Positions 1 through 39,106 of a stretch of DNA of 39,106 nucleotides are shown here, in pieces. Below the pieces are notes generated by a model. That model had not been told where the DNA came from, searched no databases, and worked only from the letters and a program-made list of their open reading frames with translations. Position 1 is the stretch's first letter, and every line of letters starts with the position of its first letter. Source of the DNA: a virus. The DNA lies in the UHGV virus genome UHGV-1488538; one strand, given 5' to 3'. Position numbers and translations under genes: made by a program.

Positions 1-79
1 TTATCAATGAAGTGAACGGTATTTCCCGCGTGGTGTATGACATCAGCGGCAAGCCACCAGCGACTATTGAGTGGGAATG
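1..79 (+). CDS. guaA: 3' end of host GMP synthase gene (partial CDS, last ~25 codons plus TGA)
   Basis: Frame starting at nt 3 translates to ...INEVNGISRVVYDISGKPPATIEWE*, which I recognise from memory as the conserved GuaA C-terminus; no start codon in window. Confidence 0.6.
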
Positions 80-82
80 ATT
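66..82. repeat. attL core: 17-bp direct repeat ATTGAGTGGGAATGATT (second copy at 39044-39060)
   Basis: Exact 17/17 identity at both ends of the window; overlaps the guaA stop codon; integrase gene lies immediately inside. Confidence 0.8.
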
Positions 83-128
83 AACAGCTAACTCATAGCA
101 ACTCATTCCTATTCAGATACTAATTTAA

Positions 129-153
129 CCCTCTGTTTTTACAGAGGGTTTTT
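129..153 (+). terminator. Rho-independent terminator (CCCTCTGT-tttt-ACAGAGGG followed by T-run)
   Basis: 8-bp perfect stem plus T-tract; a near-identical hairpin sits at 39086-39106 beyond attR. Confidence 0.6.
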
Positions 154-205
154 GTTTTTATGTATTCATTTCTATTCACTCTACACCATATTTTTCGTCG
201 GTACA

Positions 206-245
206 GGTGACGGTATTACCTTAAAGGTATACTCTCATACCGTCA
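206..245. promoter_or_regulatory. Putative integrase arm-type sites: GGTGACGGTAT at 206-216 and inverted TGACGGTAT at 237-245
   Basis: Same 11-mer recurs at 38962-38972 next to attR; typical arrangement of arm sites flanking a tyrosine-integrase att core. Confidence 0.45.
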
Positions 246-272
246 TGAAAATGGTTTCTATACGGGTGAATT

Positions 273-1529
273 GTGCTTACCGATACAAAATTAAAAAACC
301 TCAAGCCGCAGGACAAACTGTACAAGGTCTCCGATCGTGACGGGCTGTATGTAGCTGTGCTTACGTCAGGCACGGTCTCGTTTCGCTATGACTACCGTAT
401 CAACGGTCGCCGCGAAACACTGGTAATCGGGCAGTATGGGCGTGACGGTATCAGCCTGGCAGAAGCGCGAGAAGAACTGATTGCTGCAAAGAAGCTGCTT
501 AAAGCAGGCCAGTCACCGGCTGCGGCTAAACGTGACGGTATTAAAAAGATTCGTGGTGCCGAGACGTTTGCGGTACATACCGACAGTTATATGAAACACG
601 TCATCCTGGCTGACAGTACCCGCGCAATGAAGCAGGCGGTGATCGACCGTGACATACTTCCGGTTCTTGGCAACAAAATGATGGCTGAAATTACCACATC
701 AATGGTTCGTGATTTGTGTGACCGGATTGTCGAACGCGGTGGTCGGGCAACAGCAGTACAGGCCAGGGAGATCATCAGCAGCGTATACCGTCACGCCAAT
801 GACCGTGGTCATGGTTTGTTTAATCCTGCGGCTGACATTAAACCTTCGTCTATCGCCATATTTAAACCACGAGAGCGAACACTGACACCAGAAGAAATTG
901 GCCTGTTCTTCCGCACGCTGGATGCCATTGGTGCTATGGGCACTATGAAAATGGCTTTAAAGCTGGTGCTTATCACCATGGTTCGTAAGGGAGAATTCAC
1001 CAATGCAACGTGGGATGAAATAGATTTTAAAAAATGGACATGGACAATTCCTTCAGACCGCATGAAGGGAAGTCGGGCGCACGTTATTTACCTGCCTAAA
1101 CAGGCACAGGATATATTAGTCGGGTTGCAGATGTGCGCTGGTGGAAGTGAATATCTGGTTCCTGGTCGTTACAATTTCCGGAAGCCATTATCTAATGCCG
1201 CGCTGAACTCTCTGATCGACAGAACGGTGAAAATAATAAATGAAGATGGTGAGCATATTCAGGATTTTACTGTACATGATATGCGCCGTACAGCCAGTAC
1301 ATTGTTGCATGAGGCTGGTTATCCTTCAGACTGGATTGAAAAGGCTCTGGCACACGAGCAGAAAGGTGTGCGCGCCGTATATAACAAAGCGGAATACGCC
1401 AGACAGCGCGCCTACATGTTGCAGCAGTGGGCCGATATGATTGATTCCTGGATTAACGGGGAGCATACGGATCTGATTCCGTTCTCCCCGTCGAAGTTTG
1501 AGAAGTGGATGGAAGACAGTAATAAATAA
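273..1529 (+). CDS. int: Tyrosine integrase (P4-type)
   Basis: ORF track 418 aa; N-terminus LTDTKLKNLKPQDKLYKVSDRDGLYVAV... is a typical P4-family integrase N-terminal domain; adjacent to attL; GTG start, exact start uncertain. Confidence 0.9.
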   Translation: MLTDTKLKNLKPQDKLYKVSDRDGLYVAVLTSGTVSFRYDYRINGRRETLVIGQYGRDGISLAEAREELIAAKKLLKAGQSPAAAKRDGIKKIRGAETFAVHTDSYMKHVILADSTRAMKQAVIDRDILPVLGNKMMAEITTSMVRDLCDRIVERGGRATAVQAREIISSVYRHANDRGHGLFNPAADIKPSSIAIFKPRERTLTPEEIGLFFRTLDAIGAMGTMKMALKLVLITMVRKGEFTNATWDEIDFKKWTWTIPSDRMKGSRAHVIYLPKQAQDILVGLQMCAGGSEYLVPGRYNFRKPLSNAALNSLIDRTVKIINEDGEHIQDFTVHDMRRTASTLLHEAGYPSDWIEKALAHEQKGVRAVYNKAEYARQRAYMLQQWADMIDSWINGEHTDLIPFSPSKFEKWMEDSNK

Positions 1530-1531
1530 TT

Positions 1532-2191
1532 CTATCCTTCCTGGACTTTGGTAAGCGTCAGATTTCCGCAGAACACTGCGCCGGTGTCGATGTACATTTG
1601 GTTTGCATACACCAGTGGGTGATGTGCTGGCGTATGACCGAAGATGAACAAATCGGCACCGGTTATCTCCGAGACAATACCGTCCTGCGCGTCGCTAACC
1701 CGCTCACGATTCCATATCACCATTTCTTCCGGTACTGGCTTATCGAATGCGTATTCGTTGTGCGGGTAGTCTGCGTGGCAGATGACGACCTTCTTATTGC
1801 CGGTAACCAGTTCGATAATCATCGGGAGGTTGGTAACCTTTGGCAGAAGGTATTTGAGTTGCACATCCTGCTCAGAATCAAGTTGGTGCCACCATCCACC
1901 GCCGTTTGACATCCAATGTCCGAAACTTCCGCCGTTGACCAGTGCATCCAGCATCATCTGCTCATGGTTGCCACGAACAGCTCGGAACCACGGCATAGTA
2001 ATCAAATCCAGGCATTCGACGTTTTCAGCGCCGCGGTCAACAAGGTCACCAACGGAAATAAGCAAATCGCGCGCCGGGTCGAATGAAACTTTGTCGAGTT
2101 CGTTCATCAGCAGCGTGTAGCACCCATGCAGATCGCCGACGACGAAGATATTGCACCAGTCAGCGCCATTGATGCGTTGATATAGGTTCAT
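1532..2191 (-). CDS. Ser/Thr protein phosphatase (lambda PPase-like metallophosphoesterase)
   Basis: Motifs GDLHGC, GDLVDRG, GNHE and strong overall resemblance to lambda phosphatase as recalled; start placed at internal ATG (MNLYQ...) with GGGAG RBS; track ORF extends to 2311. Confidence 0.85.
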
Positions 2192-2838
2192 GCTGCACGC
2201 TCCCGCCCCTGGTTGTCTGTTGGTGACAGCGGAGCATTGCTGAATGCATTTGTTAATCCGCCGATATCCAACGCGTATCCAGGGTGTAGTTGCACTGCCG
2301 GGTCTTCGCACTGATTACCCCAAACATCGAAGCCATGAGACGTCTGGCGGGCGAACAGTTCAATGCGAGAAACATCGCCTAATAATTGCACAAGTTTTTC
2401 ACGAACGATATCTGGCTTTCTTGAATGCTCAAGCCGCGGTGCGGTAAATGACTGAACGATCCCTGCATTAATGCGCGTAGGTAGTTTTCCCTTTACCGCA
2501 AACAGGCAATCTTCACTATTGGCGCGAGTCATGTGTCCCATACCCATAACCAGTTTATCTGGTTGTCGACTACCACATTTTATCCACGTGAAGCCCTTCA
2601 TCGTCATCAGACGGAATCCCCAGGCTTCAACAACTTTTAGTGCTTCGAGTGGTTGTGTTGGCACCCACCACATGGCCAACAGACAGTTTTCATCGGCCAA
2701 ATCCCACACAGGAAGGCGGCAGATATCCAGCACACTCATAACCGGATATTTAAAACCGGCACCGCGATTACCATCTGCGGCTTTGTCCCGGTATACCCAG
2801 GGTGGATCTGCATAGATTAGTGTGTATTTCTTAGTCAT
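2188..2838 (-). CDS. DNA N6-adenine methyltransferase (MT-A70-like, DPPW motif)
   Basis: [12 protein letters not shown] motif; stop overlaps phosphatase start (ATGA coupling); start at ATG 2838 with GGGGTGG RBS (track ORF to 2850). Confidence 0.8.
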
Positions 2839-3130
2839 AAACCACCCCACAACATCCTATGCCGCTATAGTCGCCACGGCGAAGGCCGTTACCTTTTGTG
2901 ATACATTGGTCCCTGCGAACCGCGATCCTTGCACGTTCAACATCACCAGAAGCAACATCCATACACTGAAGCCAAAGGTGAGCGGCAATGCGGAACTGCC
3001 CTTTTTTCTCTCTTTCAATCGCGCGTTTTTCGATCTCTATCGCCGCAGGAGTAACGGCGATAACCTTTGAAGGACGGCGCATTGAAACCTTGTTCATGTG
3101 ATATTTTTCAAGTCGGCTTAACTTTCTCAC
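2831..3130 (-). CDS. Hypothetical protein (99 aa)
   Basis: ORF in operon context, overlaps methyltransferase start; no recognisable motif. Confidence 0.45.
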   Translation of the reverse strand: MRKLSRLEKYHMNKVSMRRPSKVIAVTPAAIEIEKRAIEREKKGQFRIAAHLWLQCMDVASGDVERARIAVRRDQCITKGNGLRRGDYSGIGCCGVVYD

Positions 3131-3239: not shown

Positions 3240-3488
3240 TCATGCAGCGTTTCTCACAGGACGATATACACGTTGCTGAACAGGAGGCTTTTTACCCTGG
3301 AACTCTGCCGGGCTTGCTGCCTGACGTTCATCAAGCCAACGCTCAACTTCGTCACGGTTCCATGCGCAGCGTTTGTCAGTGATATACCAGCGTTTAGGAA
3401 ATTCACCTGCGCGCTCCATACGGTCGATAGTGCTCCATGACAGTGGCACCACCGCCAGGAGTTTCTTCTTATCTAATGCACCTTTCAT
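3240..3488 (-). CDS. AlpA-family DNA-binding protein / excisionase-like regulator
   Basis: 82 aa; ...LLAVVPLSWSTIDRMERAGEFPKRWYI... matches the AlpA/Vis-type HTH pattern. Confidence 0.75.
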   Translation of the reverse strand: MKGALDKKKLLAVVPLSWSTIDRMERAGEFPKRWYITDKRCAWNRDEVERWLDERQAASPAEFQGKKPPVQQRVYRPVRNAA

Positions 3489-5724: not shown

Positions 5725-5743
5725 AACTTGTTACCTCGGTCTG

Positions 5744-5758
5744 TTACCGTTGAGGTAA
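5744..5758. promoter_or_regulatory. Operator TTACC-GTTGA-GGTAA (OL-like, over transcription start of leftward operon)
   Basis: Perfect 5+5 palindrome; lies just downstream of a TTGACA -35 (5781-5786, minus strand). Confidence 0.7.
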
Positions 5759-5805
5759 TAATTATGCGTATTTGGTTTGATGTCAATAGATATGAGTTAA
5801 AAAAA

Positions 5806-5820
5806 TTACCCATTAGGTAA
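5806..5820. promoter_or_regulatory. Operator TTACC-CATTA-GGTAA (OL-like, upstream of -35)
   Basis: Perfect palindrome about 20 bp upstream of the TTGACA -35. Confidence 0.7.
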
Positions 5821-5831
5821 TAGTATAGGCA

Positions 5832-5856
5832 ATAAAAAAGCCGCCAGAAGGCGGCT
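5832..5856 (-). terminator. Rho-independent terminator after repressor gene (GCCGCC-ttct-GGCGGC plus U-run on minus strand)
   Basis: 6-bp GC stem followed by T-tract on the minus strand, 20 bp past the repressor stop. Confidence 0.7.
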
Positions 5857-5877
5857 TACTTACTGAAGAGTATGATT

Positions 5878-6462
5878 TTATTGTTTGTTTTTTTCGTTCT
5901 GGTTGATGACAAATTCAATGTAACTTTCGATCTTTGCTTTCTCGGTTTCGGGTAACAATGCGTAGCGCGAGCGGTCATAGTTGATAGTCGCAGGGTCGTG
6001 CGGGTGAATCAGTAGTTCATATCCGTGACGCCCGAATGCGGATGCAACATTCTCCAGGGTGGAAATGGAAACGCTGACCTCATTGTTTAACAGGCGACTG
6101 ATTGTCACCTGGGCGACGCCGGATGCGCGGTGAAGTTTTCCCTGAGTTGAAAGGTCGCGGCTTTCACTCATCCAGCGTTCCAGGTTGTGAGCTGCCAGCT
6201 GACCAATGTCGCTTGGGCCGACAGGCTGAAAACCTTCCTGAGAAAGCGAGCGATCGATATCAAGCCAGTTACGGGGTTTATTGGCGGCAGCTTCAATTTT
6301 TCGCGCAACCTGGTCGCCGATAACCTTCTTGCCAAGAGCCCAGCGGTTTACCAGATTTGCCTGAGTTCCAAGTTTTTCTGCCATCCGCGTCTGAACACCA
6401 TTGAATTCACGGTCGATCAAGTCGTTGAGATTTTGCCTGCGGACGTCCTGGATACTTTTCAT
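5878..6462 (-). CDS. Immunity repressor, tandem HTH (XRE-like), no peptidase S24 domain
   Basis: 194 aa; two HTH-like segments (TRMAEKLGTQANLVNRWALGKK and ASGVAQVTISRLLNNEVSVSISTLENV); divergent from Cro-like gene with operator cluster between. Confidence 0.75.
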   Translation of the reverse strand: MKSIQDVRRQNLNDLIDREFNGVQTRMAEKLGTQANLVNRWALGKKVIGDQVARKIEAAANKPRNWLDIDRSLSQEGFQPVGPSDIGQLAAHNLERWMSESRDLSTQGKLHRASGVAQVTISRLLNNEVSVSISTLENVASAFGRHGYELLIHPHDPATINYDRSRYALLPETEKAKIESYIEFVINQNEKNKQ

Positions 6463-6517
6463 TTTCTGGAAAATCGCCTCATATATGAATCAGTAGATGA
6501 TTCAATTTAAAGCAATA

Positions 6518-6532
6518 TTACCCAACAGGTAA
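6518..6532. promoter_or_regulatory. Operator TTACC-CAACA-GGTAA (OR-like site 1)
   Basis: Perfect palindrome between divergent repressor and cro-like genes. Confidence 0.7.
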
Positions 6533-6534
6533 AT

Positions 6535-6549
6535 GCACCCCATAGGTAA
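6535..6549. promoter_or_regulatory. Degenerate operator GCACC-CCATA-GGTAA (OR-like site 2)
   Basis: One perfect half-site, 2 mismatches in the other; 3 bp from site 1. Confidence 0.4.
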
Positions 6550-6565
6550 CTATCCTTGATTTTTG

Positions 6566-6580
6566 TTACCTTATGGGTGA
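6566..6580. promoter_or_regulatory. Operator TTACC-TTATG-GGTGA (OR-like site 3, within spacer of putative cro promoter)
   Basis: 1 mismatch; sits between candidate -35 TTGATT (6556-6561) and -10 GAATAT (6579-6584). Confidence 0.55.
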
Positions 6581-6616
6581 ATATTTATTATCTGAAATAA
6601 ATATCAGGCAATAGCT

Positions 6617-6847
6617 ATGAGCGATAACGGACATTTCGATTTCAAAAAGCACTGGCTTGCACTTACTCCGGATGAGCGTGAAGCCTTCGCACAGGAAGCC
6701 GGAACGACGAGTCACTATATCCAGACTCACTTAACAGGTAAGCGCAAAATGCCAGGTAAGGTATTGATGAATGGGCTTTTTAAAGCCTGTAAAACAAGAC
6801 AATGGCTGCGCTCAAAAGCGGAACTGGCATACTTCTTCTACTCATGA
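6617..6847 (+). CDS. Cro-like small regulator (YdaS-like HTH)
   Basis: 76 aa; first rightward gene divergent from repressor. Confidence 0.6.
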   Translation: MSDNGHFDFKKHWLALTPDEREAFAQEAGTTSHYIQTHLTGKRKMPGKVLMNGLFKACKTRQWLRSKAELAYFFYS

Positions 6848-6869
6848 TATCTGGCAACAACCCTCTGTA

Positions 6870-6893
6870 GACCGCCATCCGGCGGTCTTTTCA
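6870..6893 (+). terminator. Rho-independent terminator after cro-like gene (GACCGCC-atcc-GGCGGTC-TTTT)
   Basis: 7-bp stem plus T-run; tR1-like position. Confidence 0.65.
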
Positions 6894-6902
6894 TATCTAT
6901 TC

Positions 6903-6917
6903 GTACCTCAAAGGTAA
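6903..6917. promoter_or_regulatory. Operator-like site GTACC-TCAAA-GGTAA
   Basis: 1 mismatch; immediately follows the terminator. Confidence 0.45.
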
Positions 6918-6997
6918 TAAAAAACCAAATCTGGTTGATCTTTTTTTTGTGTCAGCACAAAATAACCGTAATCCCAATACTAATAACAGGGCTTACC

Positions 6998-7198
6998 ATG
7001 GAAATCATTACACGTATTGATGCCGCAAAGCGCGGACTTAAACGCTACTACACCGGAAAACCATGTAAGCACGGACATGACAGTGAACGCTGGGTTTACA
7101 ACGGACACTGTGTTGAGTGCACCATGGAGTCAAACCGTCGCATCAGGGCAGAGATTAAGCAGATCATGATTAATTCCTCCCCACAACACTCAAGCTGA
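6998..7198 (+). CDS. Small Cys/His-rich protein (possible zinc-binding regulator, cII position)
   Basis: 66 aa from internal ATG; CKHGH...CVEC pattern; track ORF begins at 6935. Confidence 0.45.
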   Translation: MEIITRIDAAKRGLKRYYTGKPCKHGHDSERWVYNGHCVECTMESNRRIRAEIKQIMINSSPQHSS

Positions 7199-7213
7199 TA
7201 GCGGAGATTAATC

Positions 7214-8029
7214 ATGAGCAGACATGCAACAGATTGGGCCTGGGAGACAGATCCAGGTAGCTCATCATTAAAGCTCATACTGCTCTCGATGGCTGACAGA
7301 GCCGATGAATATAACCTCTGCTACCCCAGCATAGAACGCCTCGTTAAAGACACTTGCCTGAATAAAAAAACCGTGCAGGCCGGGCTTATATCGCTCATGA
7401 AAATGGGGCTTATTTCAGATACCGGAGAGAGAAAGGGAGCGACAAAAAGAGTGCGGGTTTTCTCTCTTAATATAACCAAAAACGGGAACATTAAAGGCAA
7501 CCGGGAGGGGGGCAATGAACCCGAAAACGGGAATATACCCGAAAACGGGAATATACCCAAAAACGGGATGTTGAATGATCCCAAAAACGGGATGTTGAAT
7601 GATCCCAAAAACGGGATCCAGAACCAGTCATATAACCAGTCATTTAACCAAGAGAGGGAGAGCAGGACAAAAAGCGGGGATTCTGTGCCTCATGACCCCG
7701 GAGCAAACAACGCCGTGATGAATAACTTTGTTCCTCCTGGTGGGCCAGGGCAATTAGGCAAATTTGTCATGCATGAACAATGGCAGCCATCAGATGACTT
7801 TCTTCGGAAAAGCTCATTGCAGGGGATCTACCTGGACAGTCTGCCAACGGCACAGGAACTTGCAGAGTTCAGAATTTACTGGATGGCTGAGGGTAAGGCA
7901 TACCATCAGGCACAGTGGGAGCAGAAGCTGGCAAGGCGGCTGCAGATTAGCAGACAGAAGCAATCAACATTACCTGATAACAACGTTCCGCACTGGAACA
8001 GCCCTGAAGCATGGGAGGATTTCTTGTGA
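7214..8029 (+). CDS. Replication initiation protein (O-like, N-terminal HTH, internal repeat linker)
   Basis: 271 aa; N-terminal HTH-like region; internal peptide repeats NGNIPENGNIPKNGMLNDPKNGMLNDPKNG encoded by DNA iterons; immediately upstream of P-like gene. Confidence 0.7.
   Translation: MSRHATDWAWETDPGSSSLKLILLSMADRADEYNLCYPSIERLVKDTCLNKKTVQAGLISLMKMGLISDTGERKGATKRVRVFSLNITKNGNIKGNREGGNEPENGNIPENGNIPKNGMLNDPKNGMLNDPKNGIQNQSYNQSFNQERESRTKSGDSVPHDPGANNAVMNNFVPPGGPGQLGKFVMHEQWQPSDDFLRKSSLQGIYLDSLPTAQELAEFRIYWMAEGKAYHQAQWEQKLARRLQISRQKQSTLPDNNVPHWNSPEAWEDFL
7476..7617. repeat. Iteron array (putative origin of replication) inside O-like gene: 6 copies of CC(C/G)AAAACGGGA core at 18/24-bp spacing
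   Basis: Direct tandem repeats visible at 7476, 7520, 7538, 7556, 7580, 7604; analogous to lambda ori within O. Confidence 0.6.
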
Positions 8030-8811
8030 ACAACGTTTTTACCGCGATACAAAACCGTGACGGAGAAGCCCTTTCTCGCATGTCAGGTTATGAGCATCAG
8101 TACGTCAACAATGACAATGTGGTGAACATGTCAGCAGAGAGGCTTGTTGATGCCCTTTTTAAACAGCTGAAACAACTGTTTCCGGCGGCAGTGGTAACCA
8201 ACCTGAAGACGCCAGAGCAGGAAGTTGCTGCAAAACAGCAGTGGATTGCTGCGTTTGCCGAAGGGGGGATCCGAACCCGTGAACAGGTTTCTGCTGGTAT
8301 GCGCCACGCCCGCGCCAGTGAATCTCCGTTCTGGCCGTCTCCAGGGCAATTTATCAAGTGGTGCAAAGACAGCAAGATGGTTCTTGGCGTCACCATTGAC
8401 GATGTGATGGCGGAGTTTCACCGGTACAGCAAGGAAAAAAGTTTATATCCTGGTGGTCCCGAAAGATTCCCGTGGCGACATCCGGTTATGTACTGGATCG
8501 TATGTGATACCCGCCGTGCAATGTATCAGCGCCAGCTTAGCGAGATTGAGGTTGAGAAACACGCACGCAGGCTGCTCGATGATTGGGCGAAAAAGGTGGC
8601 TTCCGGACAGCAGATACCCGATCCGGTGATCAGCATACAGGCAAAGCCAGAGCCCATGAGTACGCCTCCGGACACAGGGAGAGACGTTTACCATCCACCA
8701 GGGCGAAGTTTCGGGTGCATGCCTAACGCCGCCACCCTTGGGGGAATAACACCGGCGCAGTGGCTGATGGAGGAATACAGGCGGGGAAAGGCGGCAGGAT
8801 TTATCAAGTAA
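8011..8811 (+). CDS. Replication protein P-like helicase loader
   Basis: Segments QQWIAAFAEGGIRTREQVSAGMRHARASESPFWPSPGQFIKWC and SLYPGGPERFPW match lambda P as I recall it; probable true start GTG at 8026 with GGGAGGA RBS (GTGA overlap with O-like stop). Confidence 0.85.
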   Translation: MGGFLVNNVFTAIQNRDGEALSRMSGYEHQYVNNDNVVNMSAERLVDALFKQLKQLFPAAVVTNLKTPEQEVAAKQQWIAAFAEGGIRTREQVSAGMRHARASESPFWPSPGQFIKWCKDSKMVLGVTIDDVMAEFHRYSKEKSLYPGGPERFPWRHPVMYWIVCDTRRAMYQRQLSEIEVEKHARRLLDDWAKKVASGQQIPDPVISIQAKPEPMSTPPDTGRDVYHPPGRSFGCMPNAATLGGITPAQWLMEEYRRGKAAGFIK

Positions 8812-8814
8812 TAC

Positions 8815-8836
8815 CAGCGCGATAGCGCATTTTTTT
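8815..8836 (+). terminator. Weak terminator-like hairpin plus T7 run
   Basis: GCGC-gata-GCGC then TTTTTTT; short stem. Confidence 0.35.
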
Positions 8837-8848
8837 ACGCCTCGACAA

Positions 8849-8863
8849 TTACCTGTTAGGTAA
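8849..8863. promoter_or_regulatory. Operator TTACC-TGTTA-GGTAA
   Basis: Perfect palindrome about 20 bp upstream of candidate -35 TTGATT (8883-8888). Confidence 0.65.
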
Positions 8864-8910
8864 TAAAATATTCTAAAATCTATTGATTTCGTGTCTTATG
8901 TGGTTTTTAA

Positions 8911-8925
8911 TTACCTCAGGGGTAA
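8911..8925. promoter_or_regulatory. Operator TTACC-TCAGG-GGTAA overlapping RBS of gene 8929
   Basis: Perfect palindrome ending 3 nt before the ATG. Confidence 0.65.
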
Positions 8926-8928
8926 ATC

Positions 8929-12245: not shown

Positions 12246-12255
12246 CATGGTACTA

Positions 12256-12270
12256 TTACCACAACGGTAA
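12256..12270. promoter_or_regulatory. Operator TTACC-ACAAC-GGTAA in terminase 5' region
   Basis: Perfect palindrome 18 bp upstream of terminase small-subunit ATG. Confidence 0.65.
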
Positions 12271-12273
12271 CTA

Positions 12274-12288
12274 TTACCACGGTGGTTA
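12274..12288. promoter_or_regulatory. Operator-like TTACC-ACGGT-GGTTA overlapping terminase RBS and start
   Basis: 1 mismatch. Confidence 0.45.
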
Positions 12289-12884
12289 TGATGCCTGCTG
12301 AACCTAAAACCTATAAACGCAAATCAACGCAATTTAAGCCACTAACAGCAATGCAGGAGGCTTATTGCCAGTCATACATCAAAACGCCTGAAAACCAGAC
12401 TCAGGCAGCGATTAACGCAGGATTCTCCCCAAATACAGCGGCAGTTAAAGCCAGTGTCATGATGCGCGATGAACGCATTCAAAAACGGATTGCCGAGTTG
12501 ATGGAGGAGCGCAACAAACGAATGCGTGTCAGTGCTGATTACGTTCTCATGCGCCTGGTGGAGATCGACCAGATGGACGTGATCGACATCCTCAACGACG
12601 ATGGGAGCCTTAAACCAATCCGTGAGTGGCCGAAAATCTGGCGCACTACGCTTAGTGGCTTTGATCTGTCATCGACCATCATGAACATGAACGAGGATTC
12701 AATAGAGACAATCCTCAAAAAAATTAAATGGCCTGACAAGGTGAAGAACCTTGAGCTGATTGGTAAGCATGTTGATGTCAACGCATTCAAAGAACGTCTG
12801 GATGTTAATGTGAATGTGACAATTGCTGATCGCATAGCAGCAGCCAGGAAGCGACTCAAAGAACGTCAGGATGGTAATCAGTGA
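12288..12884 (+). CDS. Terminase small subunit
   Basis: Position immediately upstream of large terminase with 4-nt overlap; start at ATG 12288 (track ORF from 12210). Confidence 0.7.
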   Translation: MMPAEPKTYKRKSTQFKPLTAMQEAYCQSYIKTPENQTQAAINAGFSPNTAAVKASVMMRDERIQKRIAELMEERNKRMRVSADYVLMRLVEIDQMDVIDILNDDGSLKPIREWPKIWRTTLSGFDLSSTIMNMNEDSIETILKKIKWPDKVKNLELIGKHVDVNAFKERLDVNVNVTIADRIAAARKRLKERQDGNQ

Positions 12885-32891: not shown

Positions 32892-32932
32892 ACATCACCT
32901 CATAATATATAGATGCTTCTTTAAGCGGGATT

Positions 32933-32947
32933 TACCATTAGGGTAAA
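32933..32947. promoter_or_regulatory. Operator TTACC-ATTAG-GGTAA upstream of 211-aa gene
   Basis: Perfect palindrome about 42 bp upstream of start; coordinates +/-1. Confidence 0.65.
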
Positions 32948-33032
32948 TGAACTATCCGAATGTTAAACGCCTTCGTACTCGTCAAATTTTCTCATGTGGG
33001 CTCCTCCTGTATCGGTGCCTAATCGCTATGGA

Positions 33033-33047
33033 TCACCCGTAAGGTAA
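33033..33047. promoter_or_regulatory. Operator-like TCACC-CGTAA-GGTAA
   Basis: 1 mismatch. Confidence 0.45.
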
Positions 33048-33120
33048 TAGTACTCTATTCACCCCCCTGTCTGCAATCGTACAGAATTATTTAAAGGCAC
33101 ATCCCTGTGCCGCCGTTCTG

Positions 33121-37135: not shown

Positions 37136-37540
37136 ATGTCATTCCAACTAACCAATGAAACTTCAAATCAGTGGCTTAGTGTTAGTTCTCTTGCTGCGGT
37201 TATTGCAGGTGTCCCTCCGGAGGTTGCTTTGGGGGCTTTGGCTGGGGCGGTAATTTTTGTTACCTCTGCGGTAGAGTATCCTATTCGTCGTCGTGTACTC
37301 TTGTCGATGCTTAGCTTTCTCTGCGGCCTTCTTTTTTATAAACCAGCAGCATCAATTCTTATCGGCATAGCCAGCCTGATCCCTACCATCACGCAGGACT
37401 CTTTTGAAAAAGGGATTGTTTTCTCAGCTGGCGCATTCGTGTCAGCAATTGTTGCTGTGCGTATTGGTATATGGCTCTATCACCGTTCCGATAATCCACG
37501 CGAGTTAATTCCGGGGAGAAAAGACGATGGTAACGCATGA
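37136..37540 (+). CDS. Holin-like membrane protein (134 aa)
   Basis: Multiple hydrophobic segments; first gene of lysis cassette. Confidence 0.5.
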   Translation: MSFQLTNETSNQWLSVSSLAAVIAGVPPEVALGALAGAVIFVTSAVEYPIRRRVLLSMLSFLCGLLFYKPAASILIGIASLIPTITQDSFEKGIVFSAGAFVSAIVAVRIGIWLYHRSDNPRELIPGRKDDGNA

Positions 37541-37835: not shown

Positions 37836-38454
37836 ACAATTCCAGCGAGCTGCTGGTATTAGCGAGGCGCTGGCCGCACGCTGGTTCTCGCATATAACGT
37901 CTGCGATGAAAGAGTTTGGTATCAGCAAACCCGAAGATCAGGCAATGTTTATTGCTCAGGTCGGGCATGAGTCTGGTGGCTTCAACCGGTTGCAGGAAAA
38001 TTTCAACTACAGCGTCACCGGACTGGCTAACTTCGTTCGGGCTGGGCGTCTCACCCAGGGACAGGCTAACGCACTGGGCCGCCGTGCTGGTGAGCCACCA
38101 TTGCCACTCGAGCGCCAGCGCGCGATCGCAAATCTGGTGTACAGCAAACGCATGGGTAACAATGCCTCTGGTGATGGCTGGAATTACCGTGGTCGCGGAC
38201 TTATCCAGATTACCGGTTTGAATAACTATCGTGACTGTGGAAACGGTCTTAAGGTTGACCTGCTGGAGAGTCCTGAACTGCTGGCGCAGGACGAATACGC
38301 GGCTCGTAGCGCGGCGTGGTTCTTTGCCAGCAAAGGATGCATGAAGTATACCGGCGATATTGCACGTGTAACTCTGATTATCAATGGTGGCCGGAACGGC
38401 ATCGACGACCGGCGCGCGCGGTACGTCACTGCCAGTAAGGTGCTGGCTATATGA
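37825..38454 (+). CDS. Endolysin, glycoside hydrolase family 19 (chitinase-like lysozyme)
   Basis: FIAQVGHESGGF...YRGRGLIQITGLNNY motifs; start at ATG 37825 (track ORF begins 37594 in same frame). Confidence 0.85.
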   Translation: MEIKQFQRAAGISEALAARWFSHITSAMKEFGISKPEDQAMFIAQVGHESGGFNRLQENFNYSVTGLANFVRAGRLTQGQANALGRRAGEPPLPLERQRAIANLVYSKRMGNNASGDGWNYRGRGLIQITGLNNYRDCGNGLKVDLLESPELLAQDEYAARSAAWFFASKGCMKYTGDIARVTLIINGGRNGIDDRRARYVTASKVLAI

Positions 38455-38933
38455 TCTGGGCATTCGTAAAAGCATATTGGAAACAGATGCTTATTGTGTT
38501 GATGCTTGCTGCTCTGTTCATCGTCGGAGTGGTTTCCTGGAATATACACGGCAGTCGCCAGTACGATGCCGGGTATGCGCAGGCGGAAGAAGACCGCAAA
38601 GCCGAAGAAGACAAAGTTCGTCAGTACTACGAACAGGAGAAAGTGGCCAATGAACGTGAAGCTCAGCAGAGGATCGACCAGGCGCGCAATGATGCTCTTG
38701 ATGCTGCCGCTCGCGCTGGCCGGTTGCAGCAACAACTCTTTGCCATCCGTGAGCAGCTCAGGCAGTATAACGCCATTGTCGGCGCTGGGACGTCAGCCGC
38801 AGACACCGGAGTTTTGCTTGCCGACGTGCTCAGCAAATCTCTCGAGAGAAACAGACAACTGGCAGAGTATGCTGACCGGGCAGCCGAAGCCGGAAGAGTC
38901 TGCGAAAAACAGTACGACACACTGACCAGATAG
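38451..38933 (+). CDS. Rz: i-spanin (Rz-like)
   Basis: N-terminal TM helix, coiled-coil periplasmic domain; ATGA overlap with endolysin. Confidence 0.8.
   Translation: MIWAFVKAYWKQMLIVLMLAALFIVGVVSWNIHGSRQYDAGYAQAEEDRKAEEDKVRQYYEQEKVANEREAQQRIDQARNDALDAAARAGRLQQQLFAIREQLRQYNAIVGAGTSAADTGVLLADVLSKSLERNRQLAEYADRAAEAGRVCEKQYDTLTR
38689..38925 (+). CDS. Rz1: o-spanin (Rz1-like lipoprotein) embedded in +1 frame of Rz
   Basis: MMLLMLPLALAGCSNNS lipobox; Pro-rich; entirely within Rz gene. Confidence 0.75.
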   Translation: MMLLMLPLALAGCSNNSLPSVSSSGSITPLSALGRQPQTPEFCLPTCSANLSRETDNWQSMLTGQPKPEESAKNSTTH

Positions 38934-38961
38934 CATGGCATTTTTCATGGTACTGATTTCC

Positions 38962-38972
38962 GGTGACGGTAT
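38962..38972. promoter_or_regulatory. Putative integrase arm-type site GGTGACGGTAT (right arm)
   Basis: Identical 11-mer to 206-216. Confidence 0.4.
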
Positions 38973-39043
38973 ATAAAACGGTACGAGAAAAATTCATCTT
39001 TGGAAAAATGTTATCACTCAATTAGTTATGGTGTCCGTAAATA

Positions 39044-39060
39044 ATTGAGTGGGAATGATT
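39044..39060. repeat. attR core: 17-bp direct repeat ATTGAGTGGGAATGATT
   Basis: Exact copy of 66-82; followed by a host-type terminator hairpin 39086-39106. Confidence 0.8.
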
Positions 39061-39106
39061 TGACCCTGCACTATGAATGAACAAAACCCTCTGTTACTAC
39101 AGAGGG

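Follow-up and report, generated by a model that had tools for sequence, protein, structure and literature searches.

A phiV10/epsilon15-type prophage in the last codons of Escherichia coli guaA: core, terminators and predicted recombination sites

Introduction

What becomes of a host gene, and of the terminator behind it, when a prophage lies in its last codons? Attachment sites (attP) that restore the end of the gene entered by a phage belong to Campbell's model of integration. Phage 21 and e14 at icd, and P4 and P22 at tRNA genes, insert at 3′ ends and provide a replacement end (Campbell's reviews); in 3′-end integrators such as phage 21/e14, the end of the target gene is repeated in the attP, and the gene still functions.

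The question is raised here by a stretch of 39,106 nucleotides, UHGV virus genome UHGV-1488538, which was analysed over its whole length and is referred to below as the window. It opens with the 3′ end of guaA, the gene for GMP synthase, and closes a short distance beyond a second copy of a 17-bp segment from that gene end. An earlier note, prepared from the letters alone, had drawn attention to four elements of this locus (the core, a pair of hairpins, an arm-type repeat and an operator-like palindrome), and all four were found within 1-2 nt of where they had been placed. With a probability of roughly 0.93, the window represents a phiV10/epsilon15-type (Uetakevirus) prophage, with attL at the left, that entered the last codons of E. 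coli guaA by Campbell-type site-specific recombination. The features on which this reading draws, together with those that bear on the control of recombination, are collected in Table 1.

Table 1. Features of the attachment region and neighbouring genes, in window coordinates
Feature	Coordinates	Strand	Remarks
Host guaA (GMP synthase), 3′ end	1-80	+	Frame from position 3; TGA stop at 78-80
Core (identity segment) of attL, ATTGAGTGGGAATGATT	66-82	+	Exact repeat; identical to the published attP/attB core (PMC9782041)
P′-arm element TCATTCCTATTCA	103-115	+	Inverted repeat of core positions 68-80 (TGAGTGGGAATGA); predicted RNA stem of 13 bp, guaA stop codon included
Phage-borne intrinsic terminator (predicted)	127-159	+	Stem 127-136/141-150, 4-nt loop, T-run to 159
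Arm-type repeat of the P′ arm, GGTGACGGTAT	206-216	+	Predicted site of the Int N-terminal domain; preceded by CGGTAC at 199-204
Palindrome ATTACC-TTAAA-GGTATA (ATTACCTTAAAGGTATA)	215-231		TACCTTAAAGGTA at 217-229; candidate -10 TATACT at 228-233
Inverted partial arm-type repeat	237-245	-	ATACCGTCA on the + strand; moderately conserved, 0.66-1.0 per position
int, P4-type tyrosine integrase	273-1529	+	GTG start, 418 aa; phiV10 annotation
In-gene copy of GTGACGGTAT	442-451	+	Exact; codons R-D-G-I; integrase site in epsilon15
In-gene copy of GTGACGGTAT	532-541	+	Exact; codons R-D-G-I; integrase site in epsilon15
AlpA/Vis-family ORF	3240-3488	-	Pfam Phage_AlpA, E 6e-5; phiV10p36 carries the annotation AlpA family protein
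Rz-like spanin, last gene of the late/lysis operon	38451-38933	+	Reads toward attR; from ORF list and phiV10/epsilon15 annotation
Arm-type repeat of the P arm, GGTGACGGTAT followed by ACGGTA	38962-38983	+	Annotated integrase site in epsilon15
IHF-like sites of the P arm	39012-39028	+	Each one mismatch from WATCAANNNNTTR; IHF annotated at the equivalent place in epsilon15
Core (identity segment) of attR	39044-39060	+	Exact repeat
Native guaA intrinsic terminator hairpin	39085-39106	+	As in empty E. coli sites and in a lysogen

The Prophage and Its Target

Translation of window positions 3-80 gives INEVNGISRVVYDISGKPPATIEWE followed by a stop, ending in ...GKPPATIEWE, and the flank matches a stretch annotated as guaA in E. 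coli genomes. The 17-mer core occurs exactly twice in the window, even when two mismatches are allowed, against an expectation of 0.01 copies, and the two copies bound a prophage body of 83-39043. The window accordingly consists of the guaA 3′ end, a prophage of 38,978 bp measured from core to core, and the native region downstream of guaA, with attR, the right junction, at the opposite end of the window from attL. Positions 83-3000 are 98-99% identical, over the parts covered, to phiV10-like phages, phiV10, ZX5, PAS61 and TL-2011b among them (query coverage was 100% in two records and 77% in the rest), and about 81% identical to epsilon15/SPN1S-like phages.

The parental sites of the recombination were reconstructed by joining the ends of host and phage. 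A synthetic attB of 128 nt, made from flanks 1-82 and 39061-39106, was found contiguous and at 100% identity in empty E. coli sites; 4571 of 5426 complete E. coli genomes hold such a copy in one piece, and the attL junction was present in 569 of the 5426. The empty site has one copy of the core together with the native terminator, and in one E. coli lysogen the native hairpin comes after attR, with TTTTTT and then yfgI behind it. A synthetic attP, assembled from prophage ends 38701-39060 and 83-400, aligned across the core without interruption to the free phage phiV10, to which it is 98% identical, so the junction expected of an excised circle has its counterpart in silico; the attP of the window is likewise 97.8% identical to that of ZX5. 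With a flank that is guaA, an attB contiguous in empty sites and an attP contiguous in phiV10, the integration into the guaA 3′ end proposed in the earlier note is borne out.

The guaA attachment site of phiV10-type phages is itself already known, having been published and verified by experiment. The attB, attL and attR of ZX5 (vB_EcoP_ZX5) were amplified by PCR and subjected to Sanger sequencing, which placed the core attgagtgggaatgatt at the guaA 3′ end, approximately 190 bp upstream of int, and the same core sequence is stated to be proven for phiV10 and epsilon15 (PMC9782041). Phage TL-2011b was likewise placed at guaA (PMC3293862).

Position of Strand Exchange

As had been noted, the core comprises the last four guaA codons (I-E-W-E) and the TGA stop; it extends 2 nt beyond. 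Since this shared segment spans the stop codon, guaA is intact after insertion, and its coding sequence is unchanged in E. coli. A lysogen of Klebsiella permits the exchange to be placed more narrowly. Its attL (...ACGATTGAGTGGGAATGATTAACGG) and attR (GTAAATAATTGAGTGGGAGTAATCC) have only the first 11 nt of the core, ATTGAGTGGGA, in common, and the exchange there consequently fell within the equivalent of positions 66-76, upstream of the stop codon. In that lysogen the host GAG-TAA was replaced by the GAA-TGA of the phage, a synonymous change of the last codon together with a swapped stop. Crossover inside 66-76 is therefore most likely for the window as well. This interval includes GAGTGGGA at 69-76, and GAGTGGGA is the crossover sequence of GIsul2, another guaA integrator (PMC9376610). 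Int would thus exchange strands inside a short sequence shared by phage and host, 17 bp here, and would probably do so in the 11 nt that encode the near-universal C-terminus of GuaA, IEWE.

The conservation of this gene end reaches far beyond the enterobacteria. In a genome-wide scan, the 15-mer ATTGAGTGGGAATGA retrieved guaA ends from many phyla, and P4-type integrases with 46-55% identity to that of the window were found approximately 240-260 nt past the guaA stop in Citrobacter, Pseudomonas, Halopseudomonas, Xanthobacter, Komagataeibacter and others. Taken together, the conserved 15-mer and the related integrases beside guaA point to the end of this gene as a widely used and highly conserved landing pad.

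The Integrase and Its Predicted Binding Sites

The Int protein has the architecture of a heterobivalent integrase, with Pfam domains Arm-DNA-bind_3 (E 4e-20), Phage_int_M (5e-12) and Phage_integrase (1e-19). Candidate catalytic motifs of the R-K-HxxR-H-Y type, VRKGE, HDMRR, LAHE and VYNKAEY, were picked out of its translation by inspection. The genes and sites are arranged in the order Rz, attP, terminator and int, with int pointing away from attP. The AlpA/Vis-family ORF is likely to encode the excisionase (recombination directionality factor), as judged from its family.

The 11-mer GGTGACGGTAT, which the earlier note had placed at both junctions as an arm-type repeat, is present in exact form in each arm (206-216 and 38962-38972). 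The 10-mer GTGACGGTAT occurs in five exact copies in the 39 kb, compared with 0.05 expected, and all of them lie in the att/int region: at 207, 442, 532 and 38963 on the plus strand, and at 785 on the minus strand. Conservation of the two copies outside the gene is close to complete. Among 44 distinct relatives, T208-T216 of the P′ copy (core TGACGGTAT) scored 0.98-1.0 per position, that is, invariant or nearly so, and in the P arm the 24-nt block CCGGTGACGGTATATAAAACGGTA (38960-38983) is nearly invariant in eight phages, the one substitution being that of Tyrion. Repeats unlike the core are hence found on both arms, at 38963 (P) and 207 (P′), with further copies at 442 and 532, which is the arrangement of a complex attP. 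The GenBank record of epsilon15 carries four protein_bind sites labelled 'integrase' at the equivalent positions, all of them GTGACGGTAT, as well as three IHF sites and two RNase III sites at equivalent places. In the P arm, CACTCAATTA (39015-39024) recurs in inverted form as TAATTGAGTG (39042-39051).

The two copies inside int were examined by a scan for conservation at synonymous positions, involving 160 four-codon windows and 27 distinct int genes, with a gene-wide mean major-codon frequency of 0.72. The copy at 442 was the top-ranked window of the gene (major-codon frequency 1.0), and that at 532 stood near the top (0.94-0.97). A Mann-Whitney rank test of the 8 in-gene codons against 83 others returned p = 3e-4, a value that is indicative only because the sequences are phylogenetically non-independent. 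A degenerate copy, CGTGACGGGCTG at 336-347, had a major-codon frequency of 0.94. The minus-strand copy at 785-794 is exact in the window, and its synonymous sites are not conserved in relatives; it was dropped from the list of supported sites for that reason.

These observations lend support to the reading of GTGACGGTAT as the arm-type site of Int, which is suggested jointly by its conservation, by the Arm-DNA-bind_3 domain and by the epsilon15 annotation. The arm-binding domain of Int would then occupy the direct repeats at 38963 in the P arm and at 207 in the P′ arm, and probably also the two copies in its own gene (442 and 532). An unlikely alternative is that GTGACGGTAT is bound by the AlpA-type excisionase, by a host factor or by some other protein in place of Int, or that the in-gene copies are a mere coding repeat. 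Excisionases too are known to bind direct repeats, within one arm, whereas the copies here stand in direct orientation on both arms of attP, as expected of Int arm sites, and Int possesses the domain to bind them. As for a coding repeat, both in-gene copies do encode the same tetrapeptide, R-D-G-I, and constraint on the protein would explain part of their conservation; it would not extend to the synonymous positions, which are frozen, nor to the non-coding copies, which are invariant or nearly so. The frozen synonymous positions thus support the in-gene copies as DNA sites, and evidence of this kind was, as far as can be seen, apparently unavailable for them before. With Int placed on the repeats of the two arms, the IHF-like sites of the P arm and the AlpA/Vis-type excisionase would complete the recombination machinery.

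The Operator-Like Palindrome of the P′ Arm

The earlier note had described the palindrome at 215-231 as an operator-like copy that overlaps the arm repeat, and the two do have 2 nt in common. Whether it serves as an operator is a separate matter. The motif TACC-N5-GGTA, which forms its inner part, occurs 12 times in the window where 0.23 would be expected (50-fold enriched), and in epsilon15 seven repressor sites are annotated with the extended form ATTACC-N5-GGTAAT. To this consensus, of which an example stands at 5805-5821, 215-231 has two mismatches, both outside a left half that is perfect. The right half reads GGTAT, whereas among the remaining 11 exact TACC-N5-GGTA sites it is GGTAA in ten and GGTAG in one, at 37261; measured against the inner half-sites of Uetakevirus operators, TTACC and GGTAA, the palindrome has TTACC and GGTAT and so departs from them. 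Among 44 relatives, both half-sites are invariant, the deviant T included, and the 5-nt spacer is variable. The palindrome also overlaps a -10-like hexamer, TATACT here and TATAAT in epsilon15. A scan of positions 1-600 for sigma-70 consensus promoters yielded none for int.

Tentatively, and at somewhat less than an even chance, 215-231 may be regarded as a weak but genuine operator of the repressor encoded by the prophage ORF at 5878-6462, by which int would be shut off and Int perhaps be blocked at the adjoining P′ arm site. The perfect ATTACC half with its exact TACC-N5-GGTA interior, the 50-fold enrichment of a motif that belongs to the annotated repressor-site type of epsilon15, and the position of the site just upstream of the int start and across the -10-like hexamer are all in keeping with this proposal. 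So is the combination of invariant half-sites and variable spacer, the signature of a protein that reads half-sites, and a match with no more than two mismatches in the 190-nt P′ arm would be expected about 0.007 times by chance, as calculated from base frequencies. Against it stand the GGTAT of the right half in every relative, which would still be compatible with weak or cooperative binding, and the annotation of epsilon15, where the equivalent of 215-231 is omitted from the seven repressor sites. Comparison with heteroimmune phages was uninformative, since epsilon15 and a Klebsiella prophage share TTACC-N5-GGTAA with the window and all relatives examined have the same operator motif.

The same GGTAT suggests another origin for the palindrome. 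It recurs as the 3′ end of the arm repeat and in the P-arm sequence GGTAT-N7-GGTAC, and the palindrome could accordingly be a by-product of arm-type elements; failing an operator, it would be put together from arm-type sites or the sites of other proteins. The reservation of the earlier note, that this copy may not be a repressor site, runs counter to the operator proposal and is a reasonable one. Should the operator be genuine after all, the P′ arm might function as a combined switch for recombination and regulation, in which a repressor at 215-231 silences int and denies Int the attL until induction, and the in-gene copies of GTGACGGTAT (442 and 532) either extend the functional attP by approximately 460 bp or act as autoregulatory roadblocks for Int. 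This larger scheme is speculative, and its odds are low.

Terminators and an RNA Stem Downstream of guaA

A hairpin, CCCTCTGT-TTTT-ACAGAGGG at 129-148, follows the core on the phage side and leads into a T-run. The terminator scan returned it as 127-150, with a 10-bp stem and the tail TTTGTTTTTA, and its predicted fold has a free energy of -15.9 kcal/mol (z -5.7). A GC-rich stem-loop directly before a T-run is the form of an intrinsic terminator, and such a structure is found at 127-159. The GenBank records of both phiV10 and epsilon15 annotate a terminator, that of epsilon15 as rho-independent, and it is kept in the attP of eight Uetakevirus genomes with hosts from four genera (E. coli, Salmonella, Enterobacter and Klebsiella). 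Beyond attR, the native hairpin reads CCCTCTGT-TACT-ACAGAGGG at 39087-39106 (-17.9 kcal/mol). The window stops at its stem; the T-run TTTTTT is visible in the empty site and in a real lysogen. The near-identity of the hairpins behind attL and attR, reported previously, is confirmed: by local alignment 25 of 27 positions are identical, a score that none of 2000 shuffles reached. In the lysogen of Klebsiella pneumoniae, the native guaA terminator has the same 8-bp stem with a third loop, GTTT.

The surroundings of the two hairpins differ. The distance from core to hairpin is 46 nt in the phage and 26 nt in the host, and no similarity to host spacers was found for the phage spacer (83-128). Two candidate observations concerning the host side were rejected. 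The sequence AAGCCCGCGTAACTGCGGGCTTTT that follows attR in some genomes had been considered as a native flank of Klebsiella/Citrobacter type; at two such loci (L171 and L234), another P4-type int lies approximately 380 nt past the core, which identifies AAGCCCGCGTAACTGCGGGCTTTT as part of a second island in tandem. The idea that the phage terminator matches only hosts of E. coli type was also discarded, given the same CCCTCTGT stem in the native terminator of the Klebsiella lysogen.

The best explanation of these data would be an old capture of host flank, in line with Campbell's model, through which the phage lineage came to carry a homologue of the enterobacterial guaA terminator. That the likeness arose by convergence or chance, without homology, is improbable. 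Terminators are short and have a generic architecture in common, and in another family of guaA-integrating islands the same place is taken by a terminator of unrelated sequence, GCCCGCG...CGCGGGC, from which it follows that identity with the host copy is functionally unnecessary. Neither point accounts for an identity of 25/27 that takes in an identical 8-bp stem and its flanks, for the failure of all 2000 shuffles to match the score, or for the fact that in E. coli and Klebsiella alike this stem is that of the native guaA terminator. That both hairpins were made by the integration event, as part of a duplicated target, was suggested by their resemblance to a direct repeat, nearly identical in its two copies, that would bracket the prophage just inside and just outside the cores, and is refuted by the attP and attB comparisons: the P′ copy is present in free phiV10 and seven other Uetakevirus genomes, the empty site has exactly one copy, and the two differ in spacing (46 versus 26 nt) and loop (TTTT versus TACT) and have unrelated spacers.

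The terminator that the earlier note called duplicated was not, then, duplicated by integration; the phage has one homologue and the host the other. The statement in that note that a replacement 3′ end and terminator come from the phage stands, with qualifications: the 3′ UTR and terminator are swapped, and in the Klebsiella lysogen the end of the gene is replaced too, but the coding sequence of E. coli is unchanged. With a homologous terminator on the phage side, the consequences for transcription can be proposed. Everything past the guaA stop is phage DNA in the lysogen, and the phage accordingly carries an intrinsic terminator of its own at 127-159. In the lysogen, this terminator would stop guaBA transcripts short of int, a gene that shares the strand of guaA at a distance of 190 nt from the core, and would so protect it from read-through. 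This element would also, in the free phage, end the lysis operon of which Rz is the last gene; in the lysogen, the displaced native terminator would take over this function.

Between the stop codon and the terminator lies a further element of the transcript. The pairing of 68-80 with 103-115 is present in the minimum-free-energy fold of the attL transcript. In the 44 relatives, 95% of cells preserve it, compared with 36-48% for slid controls, and the changes that do occur in the stem are for the most part C/T facing G. In the record of epsilon15, the corresponding stretch bears the annotation 'RNaseIII'.

Relation to Other Integration Systems

The closest relatives of the locus are those of phiV10, epsilon15 and vB_EcoP_ZX5, which have the same 17-bp core and share the order Rz, attP, terminator and int with the window. 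The whole attP of phiV10 and ZX5 is 96-98% identical to that of the window, and in epsilon15 the same four GTGACGGTAT sites, the IHF sites and the terminator are annotated as they are found here. The differences from these phages are at strain level only; the P arm, for instance, shows a few substitutions. None is structural.

With complex attP sites of the lambda type, the locus has in common a heterobivalent integrase with an N-terminal arm-binding domain, a separate excisionase (putative in this case), direct arm-type repeats on both arms, and IHF-like sites between the arm sites and the core. Unlike lambda, the locus has an Int of the P4 subfamily (Arm-DNA-bind_3) and a putative excisionase of AlpA/Vis type, the predicted arm sites reach approximately 460 bp into the int coding region, and the target is the 3′ end of a protein gene whereas that of the lambda type is intergenic. 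Furthermore, attP lies upstream of int, and the locus is consequently, in contrast to lambda, without the geometry for sib-like retroregulation.

Compared with phage 21/e14, P4 and P22, the coding overlap is short, only four codons and the stop. It is identical in E. coli, and in Klebsiella one synonymous codon and the stop are swapped. The locus differs from theirs also in an extra homologous block, the terminator, which is separated from the core by an unrelated spacer.

The same target is used by GIsul2 and related guaA islands, which have P4-type integrases, and the GIsul2 crossover GAGTGGGA falls inside the core of the window (PMC9376610). The integrases beside guaA, 46-55% identical to Int of the window, are distributed over many Pseudomonadota, and a terminator lies between core and int in each. 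Elements of the GIsul2 type are islands or integrative mobilizable elements, not phages, and their P′ arm and terminator are unrelated to those of the Uetakevirus.

Significance

For a locus whose attachment site had been established in its relatives, the gain is mainly one of correct annotation: the boundaries of the prophage are set, and guaA is shown to be intact. To this are added several refinements, namely the limit of 11 nt for the crossover, the in-gene arm-type copies that appear to be under selection, the predicted and conserved RNA stem over the guaA stop, and the host-homologous terminator, and these may be of use in the design of integration vectors based on this Int and in the study of excision control. 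More broadly, the gene end that encodes IEWE and the stop emerges as a common landing pad, shared by the P4-type integrases of a broad family whose carriers range from phages to resistance islands such as GIsul2.

Predicted Arm-Type Sites and Conserved Elements of the P' Arm

Copies of the arm-type repeat GTGACGGTAT, the predicted site for the N-terminal domain of Int, are also present within the coding region of the integrase gene, int (Table). At these copies the synonymous positions are frozen and, when the whole of int was scanned, the segments containing them were found at or near the top of the ranking for synonymous conservation. This suggests that the in-gene copies may serve as DNA sites bound by Int, reaching approximately 460 bp from the core. 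Closer to the core, the end of guaA and the P' arm contribute the two halves of a predicted RNA stem, the pairing of which is preserved in 95% of cells among 44 relatives; the changes that do occur are C/T opposite G, and the epsilon15 annotation places an RNase III site at the equivalent stretch. The P'-arm block CTATTCACTCTA did not vary in an alignment of eight phages and was highly conserved in a second alignment, of 46 sequences.

Table. Coordinates of features (window positions unless a contig is named)
Feature	Position	Location
Inverted repeat/predicted RNA stem, 13 bp	68-80 with 103-115	Last guaA codons and stop, with P'-arm element
CTATTCACTCTA block	172-183	P' arm
GTGACGGTAT-type copies	336-347, 442-451, 532-541	int coding region
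ATTACC-N5-GGTAAT-type palindromes	5743-8926, 12255-12289, 15462, 32931-33048, 34481	
Array of ~6 direct repeats, 18-24-nt unit AATATACCCRAAAACGGGAAT	7468-7620	Within ORF 7214-8029
Region with IS200C insertion	L002 1640-2240	Empty site, E. coli 2017C-4173W12

Repeats Elsewhere in the Prophage

About a dozen operator-type palindromes are dispersed over the prophage, some within or beside structural genes; TACC-N5-GGTA matched the window 12 times against 0.23 expected. The AATATACCCRAAAACGGGAAT array is likely an iteron-type replication origin.

Occupancy of the guaA Site

In some E. coli, a copy of IS200C lies immediately 3' of the native guaA terminator, and hence the sequence beyond the T-run differs from that of other strains. 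Behind some Uetakevirus prophages (IMG/VR contigs L171 and L234), a second guaA-targeting island follows in tandem; its own P4-type integrase gene lies approximately 380 nt beyond the attR core, and between core and int it has its own terminator, AAGCCCGCGTAACTGCGGGCTTTT, which is unrelated to that of the Uetakevirus prophage. Genome contigs from Citrobacter, Pseudomonas, Halopseudomonas, Xanthobacter, Komagataeibacter, Bradyrhizobium, and others (L023, L038, L049, L052, L073, L086, L101, and L118) encode integrases 46-55% identical to that of the window, and in each case guaA lies just upstream, its stop codon separated from the integrase by approximately 240-260 nt. These guaA-adjacent enzymes constitute a broad guaA-specific integrase family.
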